Assembly: GCA_963713925.1 (NCBI GenBank)
Contig: OY970212.1
Span: forward strand, 1,254,722-1,318,721
Length of the DNA: 64,000 bases
Reading direction: 5' to 3'
DNA from: an uncultured bacterium
GTDB taxonomy: Bacteria > Babelota > Babeliae > Babelales > Vermiphilaceae
Of the stretch, positions 46,940-64,000 are shown in pieces. Position numbers and translations under genes: made by a program. How positions within the stretch are numbered: the stretch's first letter is position 1; the number at the start of each line of letters is the position of its first letter. Under the pieces are notes generated by a model that did no database searches, was not told where the DNA came from, and saw nothing but the letters and a program-made list of their open reading frames with translations.

Positions 46940-47016
46940 ACTGAAATCGACTTCTGATATACATTTCTGGTATGAAGTAAATATCCTTGCATCTGTTTTG
47001 TAAAAAAGGACAAAAA

Positions 47017-48066
47017 ATGAGTTTGAAGCATATCTTTTTTTATTCACTCGCTCTATCTTCCATGTTCCTGACGCACGGCAGCGAGAGCTGTTATGTTGCC
47101 ACTTTCACACCTGATTATACTTTCGAAGCACAATTCACGGCACTGTGGCTCAAGCCGGGAGCTACAAACACTCATTTTGCCGCTGAGGCGTTTCCCCTTC
47201 CTGTGCTTTCTCCTAATTGGGCAATTCATGATATTTGTAAAAAACATCATTTTGCTTTTGACCTCCTGTTACGCACCCAATTTCACAATGCTCATTCAAG
47301 CCTTTTTATAAATTGGGAACATTTTAAGCATGGGGATGCTACAGCTTTTACAACAAATTCAAATAATATGACCGGGCCATTCTTTGAAATTGGTCCGGAT
47401 GCAACTCCTTATTTCACGTCGGCCGGTTCGGTACATTTTGATTTTAATGAAATTAATCTTGATTATGGTCAAAACGTCGAATTTGGTCAGCGGCTACAAA
47501 CAAATCTGTTTGCCGGAATAAGCTTGGTCAAACTCTGTGAAATCTTGCGCTATACCTACATGGGAGCCGACGCCGGTCTGTCTCGAATAATTAAAACGCC
47601 AATCCATTTCAAAGGCGCAGGCCTTCATGCCGGTCTTGATTTCATGTATGACATTGCATGCCGTTTTGAGTTTACCGGCAGATTATCCGCATCAATCCTT
47701 AATGGTAAATCTTCCAACCAAACGACGTATACTTCCTTTTCTCCGGCATTGGTGCTCCTAGATGCTCCAAACCCAAATATCCAAGCGGTGTGTCCTCAAT
47801 GCACCACTTTAGTAGTGCCAGTCTTATTTCAAAAAATCGGTCTGGCATATGCACATGAATGGTGTGAAAGATATATGATAACCATAGGAGTAGGATACCA
47901 AGCACAAGTCTATTTCAATGCGTTACGATCCACTGACATGGGTAGCGAAGTTGTTGCACCGCCGGTTGCCTCAAGCTCAGTTGGGGTCTATGCTCGCACC
48001 TTCCAAAGGAATATCAGTAATTTTTCTCTGACTGGGGCGTATTTTTCATTCGGGATCGGTTTCTAG
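47017..48066 (+). CDS. Lpg1974/Legionella-MOMP-like outer membrane porin
   Basis: Signal peptide, ALWLKP, INLDYGQ, F.GAG...GLD, VGYQAQVYFNAL, terminal GAYFSFGIGF. Confidence 0.75.
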   Translation: MSLKHIFFYSLALSSMFLTHGSESCYVATFTPDYTFEAQFTALWLKPGATNTHFAAEAFPLPVLSPNWAIHDICKKHHFAFDLLLRTQFHNAHSSLFINWEHFKHGDATAFTTNSNNMTGPFFEIGPDATPYFTSAGSVHFDFNEINLDYGQNVEFGQRLQTNLFAGISLVKLCEILRYTYMGADAGLSRIIKTPIHFKGAGLHAGLDFMYDIACRFEFTGRLSASILNGKSSNQTTYTSFSPALVLLDAPNPNIQAVCPQCTTLVVPVLFQKIGLAYAHEWCERYMITIGVGYQAQVYFNALRSTDMGSEVVAPPVASSSVGVYARTFQRNISNFSLTGAYFSFGIGF

Positions 48067-48089: not shown

Positions 48090-48362
48090 TTGAAGATAGT
48101 TACATGCGTTCATGATTTGTTTGTCGGTTCTGAAGTTGAAGAAAAACGGCAATTAATAAAGCTTATACTTCAGAACCTCAGTATCGATGCTGAAAACATC
48201 GTCTGGGAGCTGCATAAGCCATTTGATTTACTACTAAAATGTTCGGAAGATATGCAGTGGCGTTACCTAGTGGATGCATTCAAAGAAGGCAAAGTTGAGT
48301 TTACCATAAGTTTGCAGCATATGAAAACGGTAATTGAATCAATAAAAAACCCCAGTTTTTAG
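48090..48362 (+). pseudogene. C-terminal remnant of a large serine recombinase in joined (attP) configuration
   Basis: LFVGSEVEEKRQLI...KPFDLLLK...WR aligns with the 53518..55020 product. The following LVDAF...EFTISLQHMKTV aligns with 63836..63949. Confidence 0.88.
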
Positions 48363-51844: not shown

Positions 51845-52138
51845 TTGATGTACGTAGTACGTCAATTCTTTAAGGTATGTATGAAGTTGAAAAAACTTTC
51901 TAATGCCCCACCACCTCCTATGGTGTTCTCGAACGAAGAACATAAACGGGTTGTTGCTGTGTTTGCCATCTTGATAGAAATTGATAGAAGGTTGAACATC
52001 ACCGGCAAAAAAGCTAAAAAAGAAAAAGCAAAATTAGAAGGACAATCCTATGACTCACAAACAATAGGCTCACTCACGCCCCGATATTTTAACAGGCCAG
52101 GCTTCAAGCTTTCACCTTGTATAGTCACTTATCATTGA
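51845..52138 (+). CDS. Small protein homologous to element gene 62464..62661
   Basis: E..RVV..F.ILIEIDRRLNIT versus E..RAV.F..LLAKIDRRLNVT. Confidence 0.6.
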   Translation: MMYVVRQFFKVCMKLKKLSNAPPPPMVFSNEEHKRVVAVFAILIEIDRRLNITGKKAKKEKAKLEGQSYDSQTIGSLTPRYFNRPGFKLSPCIVTYH

Positions 52139-52192: not shown

Positions 52193-52456
52193 ATGAATGC
52201 AAAACAGCGTAAAACACTCAAGCAAATATTCAAGGTTCCTGTACCGTCAGATGTCAGTTGGAGAGATATAGAAACGCTCTTTGAAGGGTTTGGCGGTATG
52301 ATAACAGAGGGAAGCGGCTCACGAGTTCGTGTTGAATTACATGGAGTGAAGGCCGTATTTCATCGACCTCATCCAAAAAAGGTGACCGATAAAGGAGCGC
52401 TTGTATCAGTGCGTAAGTTTTTAATCAATGCGGGGATCAACGATGCTGAAATATAA
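52193..52456 (+). CDS. hicA: HicA-family toxin
   Basis: W.DIE.LF...G..I.EGSGSRV....G....FHRPHP. Confidence 0.92.
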   Translation: MNAKQRKTLKQIFKVPVPSDVSWRDIETLFEGFGGMITEGSGSRVRVELHGVKAVFHRPHPKKVTDKGALVSVRKFLINAGINDAEI

Positions 52457-52757
52457 AGGATATATTGGACACGCTTCATATGATGATGAAGCAAAGACTT
52501 TTCACGGTGAAGTTATTGGCCTGAAAGACGTCATCACCTTTCAAGGCACGACAGTTAAGGCTATTGAAAAAGCCTTCAAAGATTCCATCGACGACTATCT
52601 TGAATGGTGCAAGGAGCGTGGAGAAAAACCTGAGAAAACGTTCTCAGGCAAATTAAACTTAAGAATGAGCGCAGATCTACATGCACACCTCGCTCTTGAA
52701 GCCGAAAAAAAAGGCATAAGTCTCAACGAACTAATCAATCAAAAGCTCAGTAAATAA
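52443..52757 (+). CDS. hicB: HicB-family antitoxin
   Basis: LKYKGY, FHGEVIGLKDVITFQG, FSGKLNLRM...H..L..EA...GISLN. Confidence 0.92.
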   Translation: MLKYKGYIGHASYDDEAKTFHGEVIGLKDVITFQGTTVKAIEKAFKDSIDDYLEWCKERGEKPEKTFSGKLNLRMSADLHAHLALEAEKKGISLNELINQKLSK

Positions 52758-52793
52758 AACAAGCTTTTGCCCATCATATAAGAAGCATTTCTT

Positions 52794-53101
52794 ATGCACA
52801 AAAGAACATTTAGAACATATGAAGAAAAGCTCATGGAAGATCTACAAGATTCCGAGCTTGCTATCGCATATCTTAATGAAGCTCTCATGGATGAAGATCC
52901 GCGGGTATTTTTATTGGCGCTCAAAGATGTATGCGCCGCTCAAGATATTGATATGGCGGAGCTTGCAAAAAAACTGACTTGAGCAGAGAGAATCTGTATC
53001 GCATATTATCTCCCAGAGGAAATCCTAAATTAAACAGCATTATAGCTCTTTTAAATGCAGTCGGATTTTCATTGGCTGTTCAGCCGGGAATGAAAAAATA
53101 G
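52794..53101 (+). pseudogene. Addiction-module antidote HTH protein, frameshifted at A7
   Basis: ...AYLNEAL...DMAELAKK, then the -1 frame gives TDLSRENLYRILSPRGNPKL...MKK*; A7 at 52967-52973. Confidence 0.8.
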
Positions 53102-53318: not shown

Positions 53319-53394
53319 GAGCCGCTAGCTCAGTCGGTAGAGCAACAGCCTTTTAAGCTGTGGGTCGTTGGTTCGATTCCAACGCGGCTCACCA
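53319..53394 (+). tRNA. tRNA-Lys(TTT)
   Basis: Cloverleaf: GAGCCGC/GCGGCTC acceptor, ACAGC-CTTTTAA-GCTGT anticodon arm, GTTCGATTC, encoded CCA. Confidence 0.97.
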
Positions 53395-53499
53395 TACTTC
53401 GCTCCTCTGTGAGCTACGTATGGCAGGCCAGTCTTCATTACATTGCCCAAGCAAAAACTGCTTGCAATCCGATAAAGTTAAGGCCTTTTTAAATTATGC

Positions 53500-53574
53500 G
53501 TCCCCATCGTCTAACGGTTAGGACATCGCCCTTTCACGGCGGTAATAGGAGTTCGATTCTCCTTGGGGACGCCA
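53500..53574 (+). tRNA. tRNA-Glu(TTC), integration target
   Basis: GTCCCCA/TGGGGAC acceptor, TCGCC-CTTTCAC-GGCGG anticodon arm, GTTCGATTC, encoded CCA. Confidence 0.97.
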
Positions 53575-55020
53575 ATCTATACAATCAGCGTTTTTTAATA
53601 GCATATCAAATGGCTTTTGTGCCTCGTAGACGATATTCCCAGCGTCGACCCTTAGGTTCGATAGTACCAAGTTTATCAATTGTCGTTTTTCCTCAACTTC
53701 AGAACCCATGAATAATTCGTAGGCGTTTTGACACAAAGCAAGCGTATATGCTGCCGTTGAGTAGTAATCGTCCTGTGCTTTATCAAGTCTATCGAGGCGG
53801 CTTTTAACCTCGTTAAGCTCATCCCTCAAGCGTTGGTAAAATTTGTCGTAGTCGCTGTCAGTAATACTCCCTTTGAGCTTATCAAGATAAAGATTATCCA
53901 TCATGAGAGTGATGTTTTTTTGTTCTTTCGTGAGTTTGTCAAACTGTTGGTTATGGAATTCTACCTTATACCGATGAACTTCGCTAAGTGTTTGAATTGT
54001 CTGCCGCATGATATCATCAGGCATTTGCAGCCGCTTAAAAGCTTGTCCCAATTGATCGGTAATAGTTTCTTCGCGCAACCATTTTGCGCCATGCTTGCCA
54101 TTATATTGCGTGCAATGATAATAAACATGCCCTTTATGCTTTTCAGGAGTTATGGCAAGTCCGCATTCCGCACAACGCAATAAGCCTCGATAAATGTATG
54201 GCTTTCCCGCATATTTATATTTTTGCTTTTTGTTAAATCGCGCTTTTGTTTGCTGCACGCGATCAAACATATCTTTGCTGATCAATGGCAGATACTTGTG
54301 GGGATGCAATATGCCATTCCATTCCATATTGCCGTAATAAAAATGATTGTTGAACACTTTATCCAAAAACGCTGCCGTCCATTGGAGACCGTAATCATCC
54401 TTTAATTTTTGGCATAACAGATTCAGAGAGTATGCGCCCGTTGCATACAATTCGAAAGCCTTTTGCACAATCCGTGATTCATATTCAGCGACGACTATTT
54501 CTTTCTTTTCATCTTGCGTGACATTTTTATAACCATATGGAGCTTTGGCAGGCCATTCGCCTCTACGCAATTTTTGTTCTATCGCTCGTTTTACGTTATC
54601 GCTAATGGCGTCTGAAAAATATTTTGCCAATCCAAGACTGATGCTGAACTGAAATTTTTGTGCTGCCGATATTCGGCTATTGAGCACTTGCCCATCATTA
54701 ACGAAATGCAATTCAATGTCATCGTTGAGAGCTTTTTCATATAAAAGGGATATGCGCCTATCAAACACATTACGAGACAGCCGATCGACCTTATCAAAGC
54801 AAACTACAATCTTTTCTTCATGCGCAAGCACAAAATCAAGAATACGTTCAAACTCTTCCCGCTGATTCTTGTACGCACTTTCATCAAAACTGAATGTCTT
54901 TGATATCTGAAACCCTTTGTTGTGACAGTATTTTTCAAGGCGAGCAACCTGTGCGGGCAGAGAATTACCCATTTCTTTTTGCTCTTCAGTGCTCACTCTG
55001 GCTATAAGGATTGCTTTCAT
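53518..55020 (-). CDS. Large serine recombinase (integrated-state allele, 3' end antisense to tRNA-Glu)
   Basis: ARVSTEEQ catalytic Ser, DKVDRLSR, APYGY recombinase domain, CAECG...YYHC zinc ribbon, coiled coil. Confidence 0.95.
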   Translation of the reverse strand: MKAILIARVSTEEQKEMGNSLPAQVARLEKYCHNKGFQISKTFSFDESAYKNQREEFERILDFVLAHEEKIVVCFDKVDRLSRNVFDRRISLLYEKALNDDIELHFVNDGQVLNSRISAAQKFQFSISLGLAKYFSDAISDNVKRAIEQKLRRGEWPAKAPYGYKNVTQDEKKEIVVAEYESRIVQKAFELYATGAYSLNLLCQKLKDDYGLQWTAAFLDKVFNNHFYYGNMEWNGILHPHKYLPLISKDMFDRVQQTKARFNKKQKYKYAGKPYIYRGLLRCAECGLAITPEKHKGHVYYHCTQYNGKHGAKWLREETITDQLGQAFKRLQMPDDIMRQTIQTLSEVHRYKVEFHNQQFDKLTKEQKNITLMMDNLYLDKLKGSITDSDYDKFYQRLRDELNEVKSRLDRLDKAQDDYYSTAAYTLALCQNAYELFMGSEVEEKRQLINLVLSNLRVDAGNIVYEAQKPFDMLLKNADCIDWRPQGESNSYYRRERAMS

Positions 55021-55221
55021 AGGTGACGGACTTACCTCTTTAATGAGTTACAACTTCTGGTATTTCTTTATTTTACCATGGATAAAAGAGGTTCTAAAGG
55101 TAAAAAACACATAAAAAGATCGTTTTTGATAATAACGATCTTTTCTAATAGAAAACCCAATCTGACATAGTTTATCTCACGCCATTTGTTAATTTTGTCA
55201 AATTGTATAAAATATATGTAA

Positions 55222-57807
55222 ATGGACCTTATAAATCAAATGGTGGTTATTATGCCAAATCGGACTGCAGGAGCATCGGCTCGCGACGGTAAGGAAGTAC
55301 AATCTCGTATTAAGATAGATCTGCTCTTGGCCGATGCCGGTTGGAAATTACAGGAAGACTCATCAGGCAAAGCAAATGTTGTGCTTGAAGCACGCGTTAG
55401 GTTTTCTCACAAAGATGCCGGACGTGGTTTTGTCGACTATTTATTGCTCGATAAGGATCGACGTCCGCTTATTGTGCTTGAGGCCAAAAGAGAAGGTATT
55501 GACCCATTATCCGCAAAAGAACAAGCTCGCGAATATGCCCGAGAACTGAGCGCACCATTTATTATTCTTTCTAATGGAAATCTCCACTATCTTTGGGATC
55601 TCAGGGTAGGTAATCCTGAACTAATTTCAAGGTTTCCTTCTCCGGCATCAATTTCTCAATATAAAACACTCAACCCGAATAGTAATCTGCTGGTCTCATC
55701 CTGTATTGATGAAACCTATGTTATGCAGTCCCAAATGCCTGAATTTATACGTGATCCCGCTTATAATAATGCATTGACTCGGGATGAATTTATAAAAAAG
55801 CATGAGTTAAAAAGGCTTTATCCCTACCAAGTAAATGCTATCAAGGCTCTTCAGAAGGCAGTCAAATTCGAAAAAAATAGATTTTTATTTGAAATGGCAA
55901 CCGGTACAGGTAAAACCCTGGTATCTTCAGCTGTAATCAAACTCTTTCTAAAATCAGGCAACGCTCGTAGGATACTGTTTCTTGTAGACAGAATTGAACT
56001 TGAAGATCAGGCACAAAAAGCATTCACAAAATATCTCGGTCGCGATTACAGATCAGTAATATACAAAGAAAATCGTGATTCTTGGGCTAATGCCGAAATA
56101 GTTGTTACCACAATCCAAACATTGCTCGCCGGCGATAGATATAGAAAAGAATTTTCTCCGACCGATTTCCAATTAATAATATCTGATGAAGCCCATAGAT
56201 GCATCGGTGGAAACAGTAGAGCCGTATTTGAATATTTTCTCGGCCACAAACTCGGATTGACCGCTACACCGAGAAATTATCTCAAAGGGTTTGATACGCA
56301 AGCTTCAAATAGCCAACGCGATTATGAAAGAAGATTGCTTTTAGATACCTACAAAACATTCGGTTGCGAATCAGGAACGCCGACATTCTGCTATGATCTT
56401 ATTACAGGCGCACAAGAAGGTTATCTGATCCAGCCGATTGTAGTCGATGCCAGGACCGAGATCACTGCAGAATTACTATCTCAGAAAGGATACGCGGTCA
56501 CTGCAACGGCGCAAAACGGCGAAATCGTCAGCGATGTTTTTAAAGCTCGTGACTATGAAAGAACCTTATTCAATGAAGAGACCAATCGGGCAATGTGCCA
56601 AGCATTTCTCAATGCCGGTCTTTTTGATCCCATTGCGCAATCATATGGGCTCCCATTATTCGGTAAATCAATCGTATTTTGTGTCAGCCAAAACCATGCA
56701 GCACGTGTCACCAATATCCTTAACAAGTTGGCATCAACAAAATGGCCTGAATATTATCGCAATTCAGATTTCGCACAACAGGTAACATCTTTAACCAAAA
56801 ATGCTCAACAAAATACCATCGATTTTTCTAACAACAGATTGAACGGAACTTTCAATCACCTCGAAGGGTATAAAACGAGTAAAACTCGTGTCGTAGTGAC
56901 TGTTGGCATGATGACAACAGGTTATGATTGTACAGATCTTCTGAATATAGCATTGATGAGACCGGTGTTCAGCCCGTCAGATTTTATTCAAATGAAGGGT
57001 CGAGGAACGAGAAAAAATCTTTTTGAATCTATCGACAATGATAGACAATCCGTAACCATCCCCAAAAAGCAATTCAAACTCTTCGACTTCTTTGCTTCTT
57101 GTGAATATTTTGAACATGAACATCTCTATGATGAACAAATCAAGTTGCCTGCTTTTGGAAAAAAGTTGGAGAATGATGATTTTGCAGAAAATATAGTAAC
57201 CGATGGTGAAGATAAAACTAAATTCAACACTCCTATCGATATTAAAATGCCCGATGCTATCAGTTCGTTTTCTGAAAAGAAAATCGGCACTGAAGGCATG
57301 CGCATCGATCGAGAAAGCTTCAAAAAAGCAATCGAAGCAGATATTAAAGGCAATGAAACTTTAAAATCCCTTTGGGTCGATGGCGATATTGACGCAGCTA
57401 AAGACTTTGTCGAAAAAGAAATTTTTAACCGGCCAAAGTATTGTCTTAACTTAGATAAAATTCGTAGCCTTTTTAAAGTTGATCGCCGTATTAACACCAA
57501 AGAAGTTTTAGAAATGGCGTTTGAAGGAAGAGAGACATTCGAAAGCAAAGACGAATTATTGGATGCAGAATTTAGCAAGTTTGTTTCCATAAACAAAATA
57601 GACCAAGATCAATATGACGCAGCAAAAAACTTCTTTAAAGCATATGCAACCGATCAAGAAGTGAGGGACATCATCCAGCGCAATAAGCCGGCAGAATTTT
57701 TCAATTGTCTGTCCTTCGATTTTGAAGAGTACAAAAAACTTAAACAGCATAAAACGATTATACCGCAATATATTCGTGATTATGCTCAAAATCTGATGGA
57801 TTTGTAG
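55222..57807 (+). CDS. hsdR: Type I restriction endonuclease subunit R (EcoEI-like)
   Basis: VDYLL...VLEAK nuclease, MATGTGKT, DEAH, GLTAT, MMTTGYD, QMKGRGTR. Confidence 0.92.
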   Translation: MDLINQMVVIMPNRTAGASARDGKEVQSRIKIDLLLADAGWKLQEDSSGKANVVLEARVRFSHKDAGRGFVDYLLLDKDRRPLIVLEAKREGIDPLSAKEQAREYARELSAPFIILSNGNLHYLWDLRVGNPELISRFPSPASISQYKTLNPNSNLLVSSCIDETYVMQSQMPEFIRDPAYNNALTRDEFIKKHELKRLYPYQVNAIKALQKAVKFEKNRFLFEMATGTGKTLVSSAVIKLFLKSGNARRILFLVDRIELEDQAQKAFTKYLGRDYRSVIYKENRDSWANAEIVVTTIQTLLAGDRYRKEFSPTDFQLIISDEAHRCIGGNSRAVFEYFLGHKLGLTATPRNYLKGFDTQASNSQRDYERRLLLDTYKTFGCESGTPTFCYDLITGAQEGYLIQPIVVDARTEITAELLSQKGYAVTATAQNGEIVSDVFKARDYERTLFNEETNRAMCQAFLNAGLFDPIAQSYGLPLFGKSIVFCVSQNHAARVTNILNKLASTKWPEYYRNSDFAQQVTSLTKNAQQNTIDFSNNRLNGTFNHLEGYKTSKTRVVVTVGMMTTGYDCTDLLNIALMRPVFSPSDFIQMKGRGTRKNLFESIDNDRQSVTIPKKQFKLFDFFASCEYFEHEHLYDEQIKLPAFGKKLENDDFAENIVTDGEDKTKFNTPIDIKMPDAISSFSEKKIGTEGMRIDRESFKKAIEADIKGNETLKSLWVDGDIDAAKDFVEKEIFNRPKYCLNLDKIRSLFKVDRRINTKEVLEMAFEGRETFESKDELLDAEFSKFVSINKIDQDQYDAAKNFFKAYATDQEVRDIIQRNKPAEFFNCLSFDFEEYKKLKQHKTIIPQYIRDYAQNLMDL

Positions 57808-57808
57808 C

Positions 57809-60262
57809 ATGATGAATACTGAAACAAAACGACATATTGATAATGCGCGCAAAGTATTAGTGGGAGTAGTTCCTAATCCCATATCGCAAATTGATCAAAT
57901 CACCAATGCGTTGATTTATAAGTTTATGGACGACATGGATGAAGAAGCGATCAAAGCGGGTGGCGAACCATCATTTTTTGTCGACGATCTTGCACAATAT
58001 TCGTGGACTCGTCTTATGGATCCGGCTTTGGGCAATAACGAACGCCTGAATCTTTATTCGGAAGCACTAACCAAATTTTCTCAAGCAAAACAATTACCTG
58101 AGTTATTTAGAGATATTTTCAAGGCAGCATTTTTGCCTTATCGATCGCCTGAAACACTCGGATTATTCCTTAAAGAGGTTTCTCATTTCAATTATTCTCA
58201 TCCTGAAGAATTGGGCAATGCATATGAATATTTACTTTCGATCATGTCCAGCCAGGGCGATGCAGGACAGTTTAGAACACCCCGACACATAATAGATTTC
58301 ATTGTTTCGGTTGTTAATCCGACCAAAGATGATAAGGTGCTCGATCCTGCTTGTGGCACCGGCGGCTTTTTAGTTAGTGCGTATCGACATATACTCAATC
58401 AACATACTGTACAGAATGCACTTACTCCGGCCGAGCGTAAAAAATTGATGAACAATTTTGAAGGGTATGACATTGACCCGAGCATGGTGCGCATGGCGCA
58501 AGTCAATATGTATCTGCACCAATTTAAAAACCCCAGAATTTATAACTACGACACGCTGACTAGTGACAACCGATGGAATGATACATTCGATGTGATTCTT
58601 GCAAATCCTCCTTTCATGTCGCCAAAAGGAGGCATCAAACCACATAATAAATTCGGTCTTTCATCAAGTCGTTCGGAAGTGCTTTTTGTCGATTACATAA
58701 TGAATCACCTTCGACCAAGGGGCAGGGCCGGCATCATTGTTCCTGACGGCGTTATCTTTCGACCGGGAACAGAGTACAAAACCTTGCGTAAAAATCTTCT
58801 TGAAACTGGGCTTTACGCCGTCGTAAGCTTGCCATCCGGCGTATTTCAGCCATATAGTGGTGTCAATACAAGCATTTTGTTGTTTGATCCGGAACGTGCA
58901 AAAAAAAGCACGGAACTATTGTTCATGAAAATAGAAAACGACGGGTTTGATCTTGGTGCTCAGCGTAGACCGATTGATAAAAATGATCTTCTCAAAGCAG
59001 TAGAAATTTTGAAAGCATGGCAGATGGGTGAAAAAGTAGATGACAAGGCTGCGTTGTATGTTGAAAAATCAAAAATTGCCGAATCAGGAGATTATTATCT
59101 GATTGGCGATCGTTATCGGATAGCACAAACCGATAACAGTAAGTTTAATCCCATTGAACTTGGTAAACTTCTAGTTGAAAAGTCTACTCGAGTTGGTAAC
59201 CCTGCTGATGCTAATATTCAAGTTTGGTCAGTTTCCAACAAACAAGGATTTATCGTATCCAACGAATATTTCGATAAACAGGTTGCTTCTGCTGATATTT
59301 CAAATTATAAGATTATTGGCCCTAGTGATTTCGCATATAATCCATCTCGTATTAACGTTGGATCTATAGCCTTGAATTATACAAGTAATATAGGTGCCGT
59401 AAGCCCTATGTACACAGTGTTTTCAATCAAAAACAATGATATGATCTCAAACCAATATATGTATAGCGTATTAAAGAGTGAAAAAATTAGAGAGTATATT
59501 CTGCACTTATCTCAAGGGACTGTTCGTCAACAATTACGATTTGATGATCTCAAGTTAATTCAAATCCCTCTCCCTCCTCTCGAAGTTCAAAATCAAATAG
59601 TCGCTGAACTCCATGGCTATGCAGGAATTATTTCCAGTGCTCGCAAAATTGTTGAAAATTGGAAACCGAAAATTGATATTGATCCGACATGGCCGATGGT
59701 AAAGTTAGGGGGTGTGTGTGATAATTTTCAATACGGAAGCTCAAAAAAATCATCACTTGAAGGAGAAATACCTTGTCTGAGAATGGGTAACATTCAGAAT
59801 GGTGAGATTGATTGGACTGATTTGAAATACGCTACACCTGATGAGGAATTTGAAAAATATTTTCTGAGTGATGGTGATGTTTTATTCAACAGAACCAATA
59901 GTCCCGCTCTTGTTGGAAAAACAGCAATATTTCGAGGCAAGAAGCCTGCCGTATTTGCAGGTTATTTGATAAGGATATTGTATTACAAAGACAAACTTCT
60001 CGGCGATTATTTGAATTATTGTCTCAATTCAGAGTCTGCAAAAGAATATTTTCAACAGGTTAAAACAGACGGAGTAAGTCAATCGAACATAAATGCACAA
60101 TTACTTTCAAGACTTGAAATCCCCCTCCCCCCTCTCGAACTTCAAAAACAAATAATTGAAAAAATCGAATCAGAGCGCATATTGGTCGAATCTACAAAAA
60201 AATTAATATCGATTTATGAACAAAAAAGCAAAGAAGTAATTGCCAAGCTTTGGAATGAATAA
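57809..60262 (+). CDS. hsdM: Fused type I HsdM-HsdS (N6-adenine MTase + two target-recognition domains)
   Basis: GQFRTPRHI, DPACGTGGFL, NPPF, then two S half-domains each ending IPLPPLE.Q..I. Confidence 0.92.
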   Translation: MMNTETKRHIDNARKVLVGVVPNPISQIDQITNALIYKFMDDMDEEAIKAGGEPSFFVDDLAQYSWTRLMDPALGNNERLNLYSEALTKFSQAKQLPELFRDIFKAAFLPYRSPETLGLFLKEVSHFNYSHPEELGNAYEYLLSIMSSQGDAGQFRTPRHIIDFIVSVVNPTKDDKVLDPACGTGGFLVSAYRHILNQHTVQNALTPAERKKLMNNFEGYDIDPSMVRMAQVNMYLHQFKNPRIYNYDTLTSDNRWNDTFDVILANPPFMSPKGGIKPHNKFGLSSSRSEVLFVDYIMNHLRPRGRAGIIVPDGVIFRPGTEYKTLRKNLLETGLYAVVSLPSGVFQPYSGVNTSILLFDPERAKKSTELLFMKIENDGFDLGAQRRPIDKNDLLKAVEILKAWQMGEKVDDKAALYVEKSKIAESGDYYLIGDRYRIAQTDNSKFNPIELGKLLVEKSTRVGNPADANIQVWSVSNKQGFIVSNEYFDKQVASADISNYKIIGPSDFAYNPSRINVGSIALNYTSNIGAVSPMYTVFSIKNNDMISNQYMYSVLKSEKIREYILHLSQGTVRQQLRFDDLKLIQIPLPPLEVQNQIVAELHGYAGIISSARKIVENWKPKIDIDPTWPMVKLGGVCDNFQYGSSKKSSLEGEIPCLRMGNIQNGEIDWTDLKYATPDEEFEKYFLSDGDVLFNRTNSPALVGKTAIFRGKKPAVFAGYLIRILYYKDKLLGDYLNYCLNSESAKEYFQQVKTDGVSQSNINAQLLSRLEIPLPPLELQKQIIEKIESERILVESTKKLISIYEQKSKEVIAKLWNE

Positions 60263-60284
60263 GAAAAACAAATGGAGGCTTTTC

Positions 60285-61049
60285 ATGGAATCACAATATA
60301 ATCCACAGAGAACCCAAAACATATTCTCAGCTTCGAGCGAAAAACCGTATAAATTGAGTCGCTCAAGAATAGAAACGTTCATGCGCTGCAAACGCTGCTT
60401 CTTTCTTGATCGCAAGTGCGGCACCGACCAGCCTCCTATGTTTGCCTATACCTTGAACAATGCAGTGGATGCATTACTGAAAGCCGAATTTGATCAATAT
60501 CGATTAATTCAAAAGCCTCATCCTTATTTGATTCAAAATGGGGTCGATGCAATTCCATTTGCTCATCCGGAACTTGATAACTGGCGTATAAACCAACGGG
60601 GGATCAAATATCATCACGAGTCGACAAATTTCATCGTGCATGGAGCCATTGATGATGTTTGGATTAACCCGCAGGGCGAATTAATAATCGTCGATTACAA
60701 AGCGACCAGCTCAAAAAAAGAAGTAACCTTGGACGATCGTGATTCCTACAAACGACAGATGGAAATCTACCAATGGCTGTTTCGCAAAAATGGGTTCAAA
60801 GTTTCCGATACGGGCTATTTTGTGTATTGTAACGGCGATGCGAGCGGTAATGATTTCACGGGATCGTTGCGATTCAAAATTTCGCTCTTGCCCTACACGG
60901 GAAATGATTCTTGGATTGAAGATACCATTGCAAAAATTTATGAGCTTCTCATTAATGATGAGCTGCCGGCGCCGACTGAAAACTGTAACTATTGCGGCTA
61001 TCTTGCCGCCGCCACAAAACACGTTCAAAGATACGAATCGGCGAAATAA
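60285..61049 (+). CDS. Cas4-like PD-(D/E)XK nuclease
   Basis: LSRSRI...C.RC, GAIDD...IVDYK, QMEIY, C-terminal CNYC. Confidence 0.85.
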   Translation: MESQYNPQRTQNIFSASSEKPYKLSRSRIETFMRCKRCFFLDRKCGTDQPPMFAYTLNNAVDALLKAEFDQYRLIQKPHPYLIQNGVDAIPFAHPELDNWRINQRGIKYHHESTNFIVHGAIDDVWINPQGELIIVDYKATSSKKEVTLDDRDSYKRQMEIYQWLFRKNGFKVSDTGYFVYCNGDASGNDFTGSLRFKISLLPYTGNDSWIEDTIAKIYELLINDELPAPTENCNYCGYLAAATKHVQRYESAK

Positions 61050-61066
61050 ATGCCTGCTTCACTTGA

Positions 61067-62239
61067 TTAATTGCATCGCAGCTGATGTTTTTTAAAATTT
61101 TTCAATCGCAAGGGTTTAAATTCCTTGAGCTGCTTGCGTATCTCCACGAATGGGCTTTCCATCAATGGCAATGATATGTTCTTAGCATCGGACAAAAGCC
61201 GTTGCCACGATCTATTTTTTGAACTATTCGAGCGTGTGTTTCCCGTAAAGATAGTTCGTAATTCTCTTAAGCCATTATCCTCAGCGGCTTTTTTTAATCC
61301 ATATATCGCGAATAGTTTCAAGATGCTCATGCCGGGATTATGCACAACGAGCGAAGCCAATAAATCAGATGTTTTATGATCCAAAAGTGCAGGTCTGCCT
61401 TGCTCAATTTTATCAAAATAATCCAACAGAATGCTTTGCGAAATATTCCCATCAAAAATAGCCTTGAGCGTGACCTCTTCGACCATGCCGAACTGCGCCA
61501 ATAATGGCTTTAACTTTTGCCGGTTGTTAATCCTCACTTCCATCCTGAGCACCTCAAACTTGCCTTGTTCTCTGAGAATGGCAGCAATATTTTGCTGCAT
61601 GCTATTGTCATCTTCTATGGCTCGCTTGTCGCTTCTTTTTGCCATTTCAAGATCTTTTATTTTATCGTAAAACGTTACTTCGTATGAATTACAATGCCAT
61701 TTAAATGAATGGCCTTCATTACGAAAATCTGTTTGGTTTACGTCAAGCGAACGCGTTACGTTTGCTTCCCTGATTTTGTTGATGTAATGATACGGCGTTG
61801 AGCCATCGATTAGCGTAATATTTTTGCTGAAATGTACGGCCGATAAAAGTGCTTGAGCAGCAAGGGTATAAGCAGTCGTAATTATTCCCATTTCCTCAAG
61901 TTTTTGTTCGAGCTTTTTCATAATGGGTATAAGGTCTTCTTTTGTAAGTTCTTCAAAATTATTTCCGAAATAGAGCTTTGGCAATGACAACTCAACTTTA
62001 AGACTCACATCAAATTCTCCGGTACGGTTTATTCGCTTGGTCAAAGTGAGTCGAGGTTTGTAGTTTCCCTCAAGTTGATCTTTTTTGGTCGGATTCTGCT
62101 TTGCAGAAATATAACCATATCTGCCCAATGGTGCGGCATCATTCAATATAAAGGCAGCGGATGGCTCAAACTTATCGGGATCACGTATGTGAAACATTTG
62201 TTCATTCTGACTCAATATCAGCACTACGGTGTCTATCAT
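61067..62239 (-). CDS. Probable rolling-circle-type replication initiator (phage gene II/CRI-like)
   Basis: MIDTV start, VELSLPKL.FGNN, VHFSKN, VTFYDK, LRMEVR motifs. Confidence 0.65.
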   Translation of the reverse strand: MIDTVVLILSQNEQMFHIRDPDKFEPSAAFILNDAAPLGRYGYISAKQNPTKKDQLEGNYKPRLTLTKRINRTGEFDVSLKVELSLPKLYFGNNFEELTKEDLIPIMKKLEQKLEEMGIITTAYTLAAQALLSAVHFSKNITLIDGSTPYHYINKIREANVTRSLDVNQTDFRNEGHSFKWHCNSYEVTFYDKIKDLEMAKRSDKRAIEDDNSMQQNIAAILREQGKFEVLRMEVRINNRQKLKPLLAQFGMVEEVTLKAIFDGNISQSILLDYFDKIEQGRPALLDHKTSDLLASLVVHNPGMSILKLFAIYGLKKAAEDNGLRELRTIFTGNTRSNSSKNRSWQRLLSDAKNISLPLMESPFVEIRKQLKEFKPLRLKNFKKHQLRCN

Positions 62240-62501
62240 GAGAACTCATTACTTCTTCAAATTTTGCTATCACTGCTTGTTCAATTTGACTGGCTATTGT
62301 GTTGTTGATGGGATGGAAAATGTTGAAACTACCCGTAGAAAATTTTTTAGTCGGATAGGTCAGGCGATAGCCACCTTGCTGTCGGGTGTATATGCCTATT
62401 GATCCCAAGAAAAAAGAATTCTCAAATACAATGCTTGCGAATCCGACCAGCCCTCCTTGTGGCTTAATCGGTATTATTTGTATCTCGCTTATGCGATTCA
62501 T
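62202..62501 (-). CDS. SpoVG-family nucleic-acid-binding protein
   Basis: ISEIQI.P......GFASIVF...F...I......G....YP........FHPIN pattern. Confidence 0.75.
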   Translation of the reverse strand: MNRISEIQIIPIKPQGGLVGFASIVFENSFFLGSIGIYTRQQGGYRLTYPTKKFSTGSFNIFHPINNTIASQIEQAVIAKFEEVMSSHDRHRSADIESE

Positions 62502-62661
62502 TTGACCACCGTTTCGTTACGTTAAGCCTCCGATCAATTTTTGCGAGCAACTCGATAAAATTGACTGCCCGAGCAAGTTCTACGGGCGATAAAGGCCCTG
62601 TGTGCTTCTCAGGAGATTGATCGTTAATGAGTTTTGAACTGACTTTACTTTTTTTAACCAT
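62464..62661 (-). CDS. Small conserved element protein
   Basis: Overlaps the SpoVG start; homolog at 51845..52138. Confidence 0.6.
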   Translation of the reverse strand: MVKKSKVSSKLINDQSPEKHTGPLSPVELARAVNFIELLAKIDRRLNVTKRWSNESHKRDTNNTD

Positions 62662-62720
62662 AAGTAAAGTGTGACGTAAGAGTTACGGGGTCGAGCGAGT
62701 CCCGATCGAGGCTCGTAAAT

Positions 62721-63815
62721 TTATTTCAGGTATTGTGGATTAATGCTGATTTTCGATTTCTCAAGAACTAAAAAATCATTTACTCCCACTTTTTCCAATA
62801 CTACGGAATTGACACCGTTACGGGCTCCATATATGGCGTCCTTATCAGCTCTTTCGAGAGTAAAATGACCGATTTTTTTCCGATTTGCTTTTGCGTAAAT
62901 CTCTTCCAAAGAAAATTTTTTATCTTGCGCTTTGCCGTTTTTGAAGAAGCATTTTAACAAAGAAGCACGTATACTTTTTGGCTCAAAATCAATCGATACA
63001 CCATTGATCTTAAGAATACTTTCGGCCGCTTTATATGTGGGGCAGCCTTGTTTTTTTGGCGTGCCTGCTCGTGACGGCTTCTGCTTTTCGAACCATGCCA
63101 TCGTGTAATCTTCAAGGCGATGCAGGTGGTGTTTGGTCTCAGGAACGGAAATGGATTCGGCTGCTTTTTCAGGATCATGCATGAGATATGCGTTGGCAAT
63201 TGAATCCCAGCTATGCCAAACAGTCGTAGATCTCATTTTTTCAAATCGTTGCTTTTCTTTTTCCCATAAATCGAGGGTTGGAACGAAGGTAAACTGACTG
63301 ATTTCGTTCTTATCGAGAAGTTTTGCGAATTGCCCAACAAATTCATGGTAATTCGGAGAATCCTTCGGAAGAAAAAACAACGCGAATCTTATATTTTTGT
63401 ATTGGCTTGGGGTGGAGTTTAAACCCAATTCCGGCGGAAGATTTTCGGCCGCTTTAAAGCATGCCAATTGTTCACGAAAATCACGTGCTTGTATATCGTA
63501 TTCAGCCGCATATACCTCTATTTTTTCATACACCTCACGAATTTCTTGCCGTGTTTGAACCTCGAGTTGATTGCAAATTTTCGCATCATCCGAATATAAG
63601 GCTATTACAGCGGCTTGCAGCGGCGCCATGAAAGGCAAATCGTAAAGTCCAATGATTTCATATATAACAAGCGTCAAAACGTATGCCGTTTCCGCTTGAT
63701 ATGCTCTTGTAAAAAGAAGTCTCAATTTATCAGCAATAGATTCAAGCTCATGGGAACTCTTGGTTTTTGACACGTTCACTACCTTTTCAAATATCATCAG
63801 CTGTTGTCGTGTCAA
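62721..63815 (-). CDS. Hypothetical protein with probable C-terminal winged-helix domain
   Basis: 364-aa ORF with basic C-terminal ILKING...SLEEIY...AIYGARNGVN region. TTGGAT-17 nt-TATAAT just upstream suggests a later start (~63797). Confidence 0.6.
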   Translation of the reverse strand: MTRQQLMIFEKVVNVSKTKSSHELESIADKLRLLFTRAYQAETAYVLTLVIYEIIGLYDLPFMAPLQAAVIALYSDDAKICNQLEVQTRQEIREVYEKIEVYAAEYDIQARDFREQLACFKAAENLPPELGLNSTPSQYKNIRFALFFLPKDSPNYHEFVGQFAKLLDKNEISQFTFVPTLDLWEKEKQRFEKMRSTTVWHSWDSIANAYLMHDPEKAAESISVPETKHHLHRLEDYTMAWFEKQKPSRAGTPKKQGCPTYKAAESILKINGVSIDFEPKSIRASLLKCFFKNGKAQDKKFSLEEIYAKANRKKIGHFTLERADKDAIYGARNGVNSVVLEKVGVNDFLVLEKSKISINPQYLK

Positions 63816-63835
63816 TTATACCGGTTTACCTTGTG

Positions 63836-63949
63836 TCATCCAACCATTGCGGGTTGGATGCCCAAGGACGAACATACCGTTTTGATATGTTGCAGGCTTA
63901 TGGTAAACTCAATTTCGTAGTTCCTGAATGTATCAACTAGGGGACGCCA
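63836..63949 (-). other. Detached native 3' end of the integrase gene (37 codons + stop)
   Basis: Read from the att core it encodes WRPLVDTFRNYEIEFTISLQHIKTVCSSLGIQPAMVG*, in frame with integrase Trp483. Confidence 0.88.
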
Positions 63950-63997
63950 GTCTTCGCTTATCCACCTTGCGATATTTGGCAAGCTACGGCGGGCAGG
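63950..63997 (+). repeat. Family B palindromic repeat (CTTCGCT...AGCTACGGCGGGCAGG) on the chromosomal side of the att site
   Basis: Closely similar to the reverse complement of 22704-22750; a related copy follows tRNA-Lys (53397-53429). Confidence 0.75.
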
Positions 63998-64000
63998 CGC

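Follow-up and report, generated by a model that had tools for sequence, protein, structure and literature searches.

When a mobile element inserts at the 3' end of a tRNA gene through an integrase whose own gene crosses the attachment site, what becomes of the end of the enzyme, and what would the altered enzyme still do? This question is raised by a stretch of 64,000 nucleotides (hereafter the window) from an uncultured Vermiphilaceae bacterium of the Babelota (contig OY970212.1, positions 1,254,722 to 1,318,721), which forms the final 64 kb of a 1.32-Mb single-contig genome, with the contig ending at window position 64000. A 10,375-bp element spans from the end of a tRNA-Glu(TTC) gene (53500-53574, plus strand; 53574) to 63949, and its large serine recombinase gene (53518-55020, minus strand) runs into the tRNA gene. 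An earlier reading of the letters alone (the sequence-only reading) had proposed that attP lies inside the integrase gene, that integration swaps the C-terminus, and that the exchanged tail could be a state switch that replaces or complements a recombination directionality factor (RDF).

The ten bases GGGGACGCCA at the 3' end of tRNA-Glu, as delimited by ARAGORN (attL identity stretch, 53565-53574, plus strand), recur at 63940-63949 (attR identity stretch, plus strand). These are the only two copies in the window, one further, unrelated copy lies in the rest of the 1.32-Mb genome, and the chance expectation for this 10-mer within 20 kb is 0.005. The boundary at 63949 is independently supported, because it is followed by a host CCA-GTCTTCGC repeat (63947-64000, plus strand), the original 3' flank of tRNA-Glu, which is also found 3' of CCA in tRNA-Arg, -Asn, -Asp, -Lys and tmRNA of the same genome and 3' of unoccupied tRNA-Glu in the relatives L182 and L183. 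The codon for Trp483 of the integrase is the antisense of the tRNA-Glu CCA, and the shared stretch begins exactly at codon 483. In the integrated state the open reading frame (ORF) overlaps 57 tRNA bases in antisense (53518-53574), as the sequence-only reading had it, and yields a 500-aa protein that ends WRPQGESNSYYRRERAMS, with residues 485-500 read from the opposite strand of the tRNA. At the far end of the element, a frame in the same register as the integrase starts from 63949 and runs for 37 residues to a stop at 63836-63838 (displaced tail frame, 63836-63949, minus strand; 37 codons beginning with Trp, then the stop). The ~25 bases at its start double as the P arm of attP. Joining the two ends, as in a circle, gives by arithmetic 482+37 = 519 aa. 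The repeat, the 500-aa integrated form and the in-frame 519-aa joined form were thus confirmed in coordinates and register, and sequence comparison bears out that attP is inside the integrase gene and that the C-terminus is swapped on integration.

Over 29 aa, the far frame shares 62% identity with the tail of a sister integrase remnant (48090-48362, plus strand, profile positions 424-484), which lies outside the element and carries its tail attached in frame, and with the natural C-terminus of the homolog P0057. A tail profile built only from four attached tails was used to seek upstream, same-strand tails in related loci, and among loci with an integrase reading into a tRNA a homologous displaced tail was found in 18 besides the window. 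Left out of this set were L005 (match not starting at the core), L016 (no gene end), L043 and L071 (tail-joined), and the weak matches L041, L072 and L079. The search of homologs proposed earlier therefore recovered the same tail both attached, in P0057 and the remnant, and displaced, in the 18 loci.

Alignment of the displaced tails with the tRNA of their own locus defined the overlap between element and target. Positions +1 to +3 match by construction; +4 matched in 19/19, +5 in 19/19, +6 in 18/19 and +7 in only 7/19, and mismatched pairs of tail and tRNA shared at least 6 bases in 45/342 cases. The family-level overlap is 6 bp (TGG plus 3), corresponding in the window to 53569-53574, the last six bases of the tRNA gene. 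The shared site of the sequence-only reading is therefore real, while its length of 10 bp does not hold for the family: as a family rule the 10-bp core was rejected, the overlap being 6 bp in 11/19, and because the family-level overlap is 6 bp, 4 of the 10 bases shared here are not needed. Across the 19 sites the attP arms were symmetric about +5/+6, with 4.2 of 8 matches compared to at most 2.8 at 24 other centres, and other arm pairings at the same centre gave 0.95-2.7 matches of 8. Because tRNA identity ends at +6 and the arms are symmetric about +5/+6, we infer a 2-bp crossover at 53569-53570, inside the codon for Arg484, with its counterpart in attR at 63944-63945. We take 53569-53570 to be tRNA positions 71-72 by standard numbering. 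A cut there would leave the element to supply just the discriminator base and CCA, and the family could therefore move between tRNAs. The host repeat noted above belongs to a CCA-KWCTTCGC family that occurs in the window at 63947-64000 and 53392-53440, with 21 motif matches in this genome (G000), after several tRNA and tmRNA ends; it forms the outer attB arm in 9/19 sites and interrupts tails in L245 and L246.

What integration removes was assessed against the known architecture of these enzymes. The PF00239 serine catalytic domain of the integrase scored 76 bits against a cut-off of 23, with an RVS motif invariant in 90 homologs; PF07508 (Recombinase) and PF13408 (zinc-ribbon) were also above their cut-offs, and a coiled coil was modelled as helices 335-382 and 388-439. 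In a fold search the integrase model matched 6dnw, 4kis and 9iu2, with Z of 10-14.5 to solved serine integrases, which align to model residues up to 468-482 and then stop, so that the cut at residue 484 lies beyond them. Since solved integrases align no further, integration removes only an extension: all four canonical modules stay intact, and a conserved 35-residue two-helix tail is exchanged for a few unconserved residues.

Several observations indicate that the tail behaves like a conserved protein segment, predicted to form two helices beyond the solved large-serine-recombinase fold. Conservation reaches codon 31, with alternating hydrophobic columns at 0.88-1.0. Across tail codons 10-29, past the att arm, identity by codon position was 0.50/0.63/0.38, lowest at the third position, and the ratio of nonsynonymous to synonymous variation (pN/pS) was 0.58, compared to 0.76-1.33 in the other five frames; this analysis used 23 of 26 tails, L031 being dropped for an indel and L019 and L046 for early stops. 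A search on DNA features only (presence of the 6-bp core and symmetry with the arm of the element itself) returned 10 high-scoring sites, eight of which are tail homologs. AlphaFold2 modelling of the naturally tail-joined P0057 placed tail helices at 484-491 and 501-510 with a per-residue confidence (pLDDT) of 82-86 and an overall fold confidence (pTM) of 0.47, while the tRNA-read residues 485-500 of the window's integrase were modelled as disordered (pLDDT <50). The tail profile matched 195 representatives, and among the 150 matches listed all were at most 244 aa, 30 of them with integrase C-terminal sequence (clustering at 50% hides full-length forms). MAFFT had placed the tail on residues 431-465 in one alignment (A2), and its origin as an internal integrase repeat was rejected (hhalign probability 0.4%).

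The same arrangement recurs throughout a family of integrases. A protein search gave 2,094 matches among 8,000 scored candidates; the best 120 of these are 62-77% identical and part ways only past the Trp, where they continue as antisense tRNA peptides, stop at once or carry one of a few conserved tails. Named homologs are mostly from Candidatus Babeliales/Dependentiae, with some from Patescibacteria. The Trp codon was located in 70 of 79 genome loci, nine being left unscored (truncated, frameshifted or without Trp), and in 50 of the 70 it lies on the CCA end of a tRNA called by ARAGORN (Glu 17, Arg 12, Asp 9, Gln 7, Asn 5). Eight more show a T-loop motif (L036 doubtful), and the remaining 12 were classed as other, tail-joined genes included; L057, also tRNA-like, escaped the motif. 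The integrated C-termini range from 3 to 80 residues with no shared sequence, and 32 of the 58 tRNA-reading relatives stop within 4 residues past the Trp. On a FastTree phylogeny of 49 intact genes, taken without branch support, the target tRNA changes 14 times (minimum 4; shuffled mean 27.6, lowest 22). The targets at L053, L058, L062, L064, L067 and L069 resemble tRNA genes interrupted near the anticodon loop, which ARAGORN without intron mode misses. Two further intact integrases occur in this genome (C1:1065167-1066633 and C1:604059-605582), the former in a 14-kb element at tRNA-Ala (C1:1052490-1066633) whose 30%-identical integrase reads into tRNA-Ala and which also has primase/helicase-like genes and, at 1052490, a candidate displaced tail belonging to a third type. 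Two small records labelled as phages and one plasmid record with 30% homologs proved to be integrated forms at tRNA-Leu, -Glu and -Tyr. No relative was found among the viral contigs searched, where the five junction-pattern matches were not integrases.

Natural tail-joined genes were found as P0057, the remnant at 48090-48362, and a soil contig that runs from integrase into tail (run X2, record 9). Among 93 junction-pattern matches, 31 were tail-joined (several of them near-duplicates), 27 of which are closed by a stop 25-131 codons upstream and four of which reach the sequence end. In a hand count across 41 genomes, 22 of 27 tRNA-reading genes were intact compared to one of six tail-joined genes (Fisher p 0.005); the count left out L190 (neither end), L214 (no Trp) and the gapped remnant of G002, and the genome samples partly overlap. 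This contrast fits selection against the tailed enzyme in the chromosome. A region search for tail-attached full-length proteins returned P0057 alone among four candidates. Tail-joined remnants in L097, L104, L105, L115, L141 and L142 share a recurrent breakpoint near integrase codon 385, preceded by unrelated DNA.

Tails are also passed on and retained in tandem arrangements. At tRNA-Asp of this genome (C1:601371-610287), a 2.7-kb islet without integrase (ORFs of 647 aa and 180 aa) supplies its neighbour with a tail of a different type: the intact integrase at C1:604059-605582 ends in the islet's tail, and its own tail lies ~6 kb off at C1:610287. Tail donation by a tandem neighbour was likewise observed in L043 and L071. 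An integrase-less 3-kb islet at tRNA-Gln (C1:837093-840074) ends in the second tail type; the beginning of its 679-aa ORF resembles that of the 647-aa ORF in the tRNA-Asp islet, and two small ORFs follow, an order reminiscent of toxin-immunity sets. In G028:C8 (L247:1347-5290), six near-identical site copies bound five cassettes of ~0.7-0.85 kb, integron-like, behind an integrase element. These cassettes we take to be toxin-antitoxin-like, as recognised from the printed sequences rather than by a family scan. In this array the tail profile matches no further than positions 15-22, yet the initial 30 bases are nearly fixed, which favours a protein role of the tail tied to the integrase. In G001:C34 (L245:5363-10330), single-gene units behind tRNA-Asp each start with CCA and a terminator-like hairpin and end in a full tail.

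A second component of the element may bear on directionality. A 65-aa one-helix ORF (62464-62661, minus strand) belongs to a family of small ORFs present in 18 of 21 delimited elements immediately upstream of the replication gene, whether the module is Rep-type or primase-type. The window's copy matched a profile built from other loci only (E 2.7e-10), and no known family was found for it, Pfam included. It is a candidate RDF/excisionase or regulator. Mimicry of the tail by this small protein was considered and rejected (hhalign probability 0.2%).

Based on these data, we propose that attP of the element recombines with the 3' tip of a tRNA gene and that the tail would be a state-dependent regulatory piece. 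The tailed form, made from the circle, would be the efficient integrating enzyme, and the tail-less form, made by lone integrated elements, would be weaker or biased toward excision and would probably need the small conserved protein as RDF. We assign this reading, a tailed circle enzyme that integrates efficiently and a weaker or excision-biased tail-less enzyme that works with the small protein, a probability of roughly 0.6. Under it the tail would complement an RDF, and the earlier suggestion that it replaces one is weakened by the wide conservation of the small ORF.

Several points weigh against this proposal. The contrast between intact and broken genes is confounded by age, internal array members being older, and by kinship, and intact tail-joined genes do occur (P0057, the second integrase of L014, and C1:604059-605582 with its different tail type). 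Sequence spanning 53574/63949, the circle joint for which the sequence-only reading had suggested looking, was absent from four runs, all of them shallow and in contig form (best 0.24 of words, depth ~2-5), and no terminal repeats of at least 20 bases were found in the 93 junction-pattern loci, a set that includes many incomplete contigs. Choosing the tails by protein profile guarantees an open frame and contributes part of the codon signal; in the DNA-only search, frames of at least 29 codons were open in 8/10 high-scoring compared to 28/63 low-scoring sites, a modest difference. Three full or nearly full tails (at least 29 codons) persist in G001, and no family integrase was found in this 96%-complete genome; unless the copies are recent, the G001:C34 tails count against a protein role tied to the integrase. 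Finally, it is position and conservation that make the small ORF a candidate RDF or regulator, and its role is a guess.

If the tail were instead the whole direction switch, the tailed enzyme would integrate and the tail-less one excise unaided, with no RDF. The tail does come after the last strand and helix of the zinc-ribbon domain, to which, in the available text on phiC31, the coiled coil is anchored and which the RDF remodels there (bioRxiv 10.1101/2025.05.02.651858); the small ORF is absent from 3 of the 21 delimited elements, and family scans of the element ORFs found no known excisionase family. However, the small ORF travels with the other 18 and with both replication modules, and unaided excision in the integrated state would destabilise elements, yet intact integrated copies are common, so we regard this explanation as unlikely. 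Tail donation in the tandem arrays of this genome, L043 and L071 would suit a suicide-like lock, where the tail is required for any activity and integrated elements move only through the enzyme of an incoming circle or a tail-donating neighbour. Such a lock was raised for DsiB by McMurdie et al. (PMC3146451), and SSV integrases are described as working so (PMC8371274). It is quite unlikely here, given that the integrated form retains every region that aligns to solved active integrases and that the predominance of intact tRNA-reading genes fits selection on the tail-less protein, although recent arrival would also explain the latter.

Another explanation dispenses with regulation: the tail would be a structural or DNA-level feature, for example for reading the lopsided tRNA site or as an extended binding site, and its loss would have little effect. 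The first eight tail codons double as attP arm, tails survive in the integrase-less units of G001, and the pN/pS signal is moderate and partly circular. We nevertheless consider this decidedly unlikely, since conservation to codon 31 extends well beyond an att arm of 25-30 bp and the six-copy array of G028 loses the profile match at 15-22 while its first 30 bases stay nearly fixed. That the switch might lie in protein stability, or in silencing of the integrated-state mRNA antisense to the tRNA, accords with the disordered model of the integrated C-terminus and with the 57-base antisense overlap, and is nonetheless very improbable. Because integrated C-termini share neither sequence nor length, a designed degron in the integrated form is unlikely. 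More speculatively, the tail might act as a directionality subunit encoded in cis, joined to the enzyme and taken off again by recombination itself, and might compete with the small protein. This tentative reading would include free retargeting among tRNAs, a CCA end and a short overlap being all that the enzyme requires, together with tail passing in tandem arrays and integron-like, tRNA-anchored capture of integrase-less cassettes such as toxin-antitoxin pairs and single genes.

The cargo of the element consists of a Type I-like restriction subunit with an HsdR N-terminus and helicase (861 aa, 55222-57807, plus strand; Pfam HSDR_N_2, ResIII), an N6-methyltransferase fused to specificity domains (HsdM-S, 817 aa, 57809-60262, plus strand; Pfam N6_Mtase, Methylase_S), and a PD-(D/E)XK nuclease (60240-61049, plus strand) with relatives in three other delimited elements. 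These are followed by a probable rolling-circle replication initiator (390 aa, 61067-62239, minus strand), Phage_CRI-like on weak evidence: it had no Pfam, PHROG or NCBIfam match, and an Atlas feature score of 0.97 linked it to clusters with PF05144 in 25-57% of members, at a recognition value below the reliable range. A 99-aa SpoVG-like small protein (62202-62501, minus strand; Pfam PF04026, E 6e-12) and a 364-aa ORF with relatives in two other delimited elements (62721-63815, minus strand) complete the set. No conjugation genes were found among the eight element ORFs scanned with Pfam and other family collections, and a promoter and terminator scan did no better than shuffles (7 compared to 5.3; 2 compared to 2.1). 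The whole is a small non-conjugative integrative element of integrase, probable rolling-circle Rep and restriction-modification cargo. Like integrative and mobilisable elements it has an integrase of its own and, among the ORFs scanned, no conjugation genes; with respect to a relaxase or oriT, what was observed is the weak Phage_CRI-like assignment of the 390-aa protein. Outside it, a decayed sister element lies upstream of tRNA-Lys in the opposite orientation, comprising the integrase C-terminal remnant with tail (48090-48362), a second small-helix ORF (51845-52138), then HicA/HicB and an addiction-module antidote fragment (52193-52982; all plus strand). Directly before the remnant is a gene of the Legionella major outer-membrane-protein family (46987-48066, plus strand; PF05150, E 4e-39).

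Compared with phage-type large serine integrases such as Listeria LI/A118, Bxb1, phiC31 and TP901-1, the integrase has the same catalytic, recombinase, zinc-ribbon and coiled-coil modules, and it shares an imperfect-dyad attP about a 2-bp centre with little attP/attB homology, as judged here by comparison rather than from a cleavage map. Unlike these enzymes, it has attP inside its gene, a tRNA CCA target, and a two-helix extension past the aligned ends of solved chains. Another described counterpart is DsiB of the Dehalococcoides ssrA islands, also a large serine recombinase overlapping attL at a tRNA-like 3' end. In the available text of PMC3146451, the 3' end of its gene always overlaps attL at ssrA, and islands occur in tandem, the authors' proposal being that full function may require the circle or a place behind a neighbour able to supply the 3' fragment. 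By that description, which is what we compared rather than integrase sequences, DsiB targets ssrA only, whereas the present family targets tRNA-Glu, Arg, Asp, Gln, Asn and Ala; its module includes DsiA (a small serine recombinase), ParB and Mom, families absent from the eight ORFs scanned here, and that text defines neither a conserved tail nor a crossover. The accessible text also describes attR inside the serine integrase gene of streptococcal integrative and conjugative elements at rumA (PMC4701971) and one snf2 element of the same kind, IME_Spy2096_SNF2 (PMC5357655), which differ in being conjugative or mobilisable Firmicute elements with protein-coding targets; that text reports no assay of these integrases.

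Among tyrosine recombinases, Myxococcus phage Mx8 IntP/IntX has attP inside int, with 112 C-terminal residues replaced by 13 on integration (as cited in PMC4701971 and PMC4383910), and its truncated integrated form is summarised as less active (PMC4701971), a precedent for the weaker tail-less form proposed above; this phage enzyme is unrelated to the serine family studied here. The archaeal SSV, pTN3 and pT26-2 suicidal integrases likewise carry att in the gene, and chimeric genes have been proposed from exchange between elements (PMC8371274, in the part available). These too are tyrosine recombinases, and in them it is the catalytic domain that is split off, whereas the present enzyme keeps its catalytic and DNA-binding core undivided. 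To judge from its sequence, then, the integrase works like the att-in-gene integrases of Mx8 and SSV and, being a serine enzyme, is not a member of that group.

A literature search confined largely to openly accessible main texts found no description of a tRNA-CCA serine integrase family or of such a tail; searches naming Patescibacteria, Babeliales or the Candidate Phyla Radiation (CPR) returned no papers, and elements of this kind could be present in the target tables of PMC10083194 or in the TIGER database (PMC12424338). The word tRNA is absent from the main text of that survey of 6,207 large serine recombinases (PMC10083194), and a tycheposon preprint reports large serine recombinases in 27 of 937 elements (937 minus 910; 10.1101/2020.12.28.424599) and does not, in the part available, give their sites. 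The sequence-only reading had not known the mechanism as characterised for tRNA-targeting large serine recombinases. This stands in that no tRNA-CCA serine case was found, and falls short in that att-crossing serine integrase genes are in print at ssrA, rumA and snf2, as the portions available of PMC3146451, PMC4701971 and PMC5357655 describe. What appears to be new among att-in-gene integrases is the combination of three features: serine chemistry, a tRNA-CCA target with an overlap of 6 bp, and a conserved tail that can be detached.

These findings have several implications. The family contradicts the available text of the Islander paper (PMC4383910), which states that no targeting of tRNA genes by serine integrases was known. 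The fragment search used there has a 7-base seed, for which an overlap of 6 bp is probably too short, and this may be the reason the family was missed. The direction of serine integrases is currently understood through att-site geometry and a separate RDF, and a folded tail gained or lost in each reaction would, if true, add a third control and would make the proposals for DsiB and the rumA elements (PMC3146451, PMC4701971) testable. An integrase that switches targets is of interest for genome-engineering tools and for how bacteria with small genomes gather defence genes.

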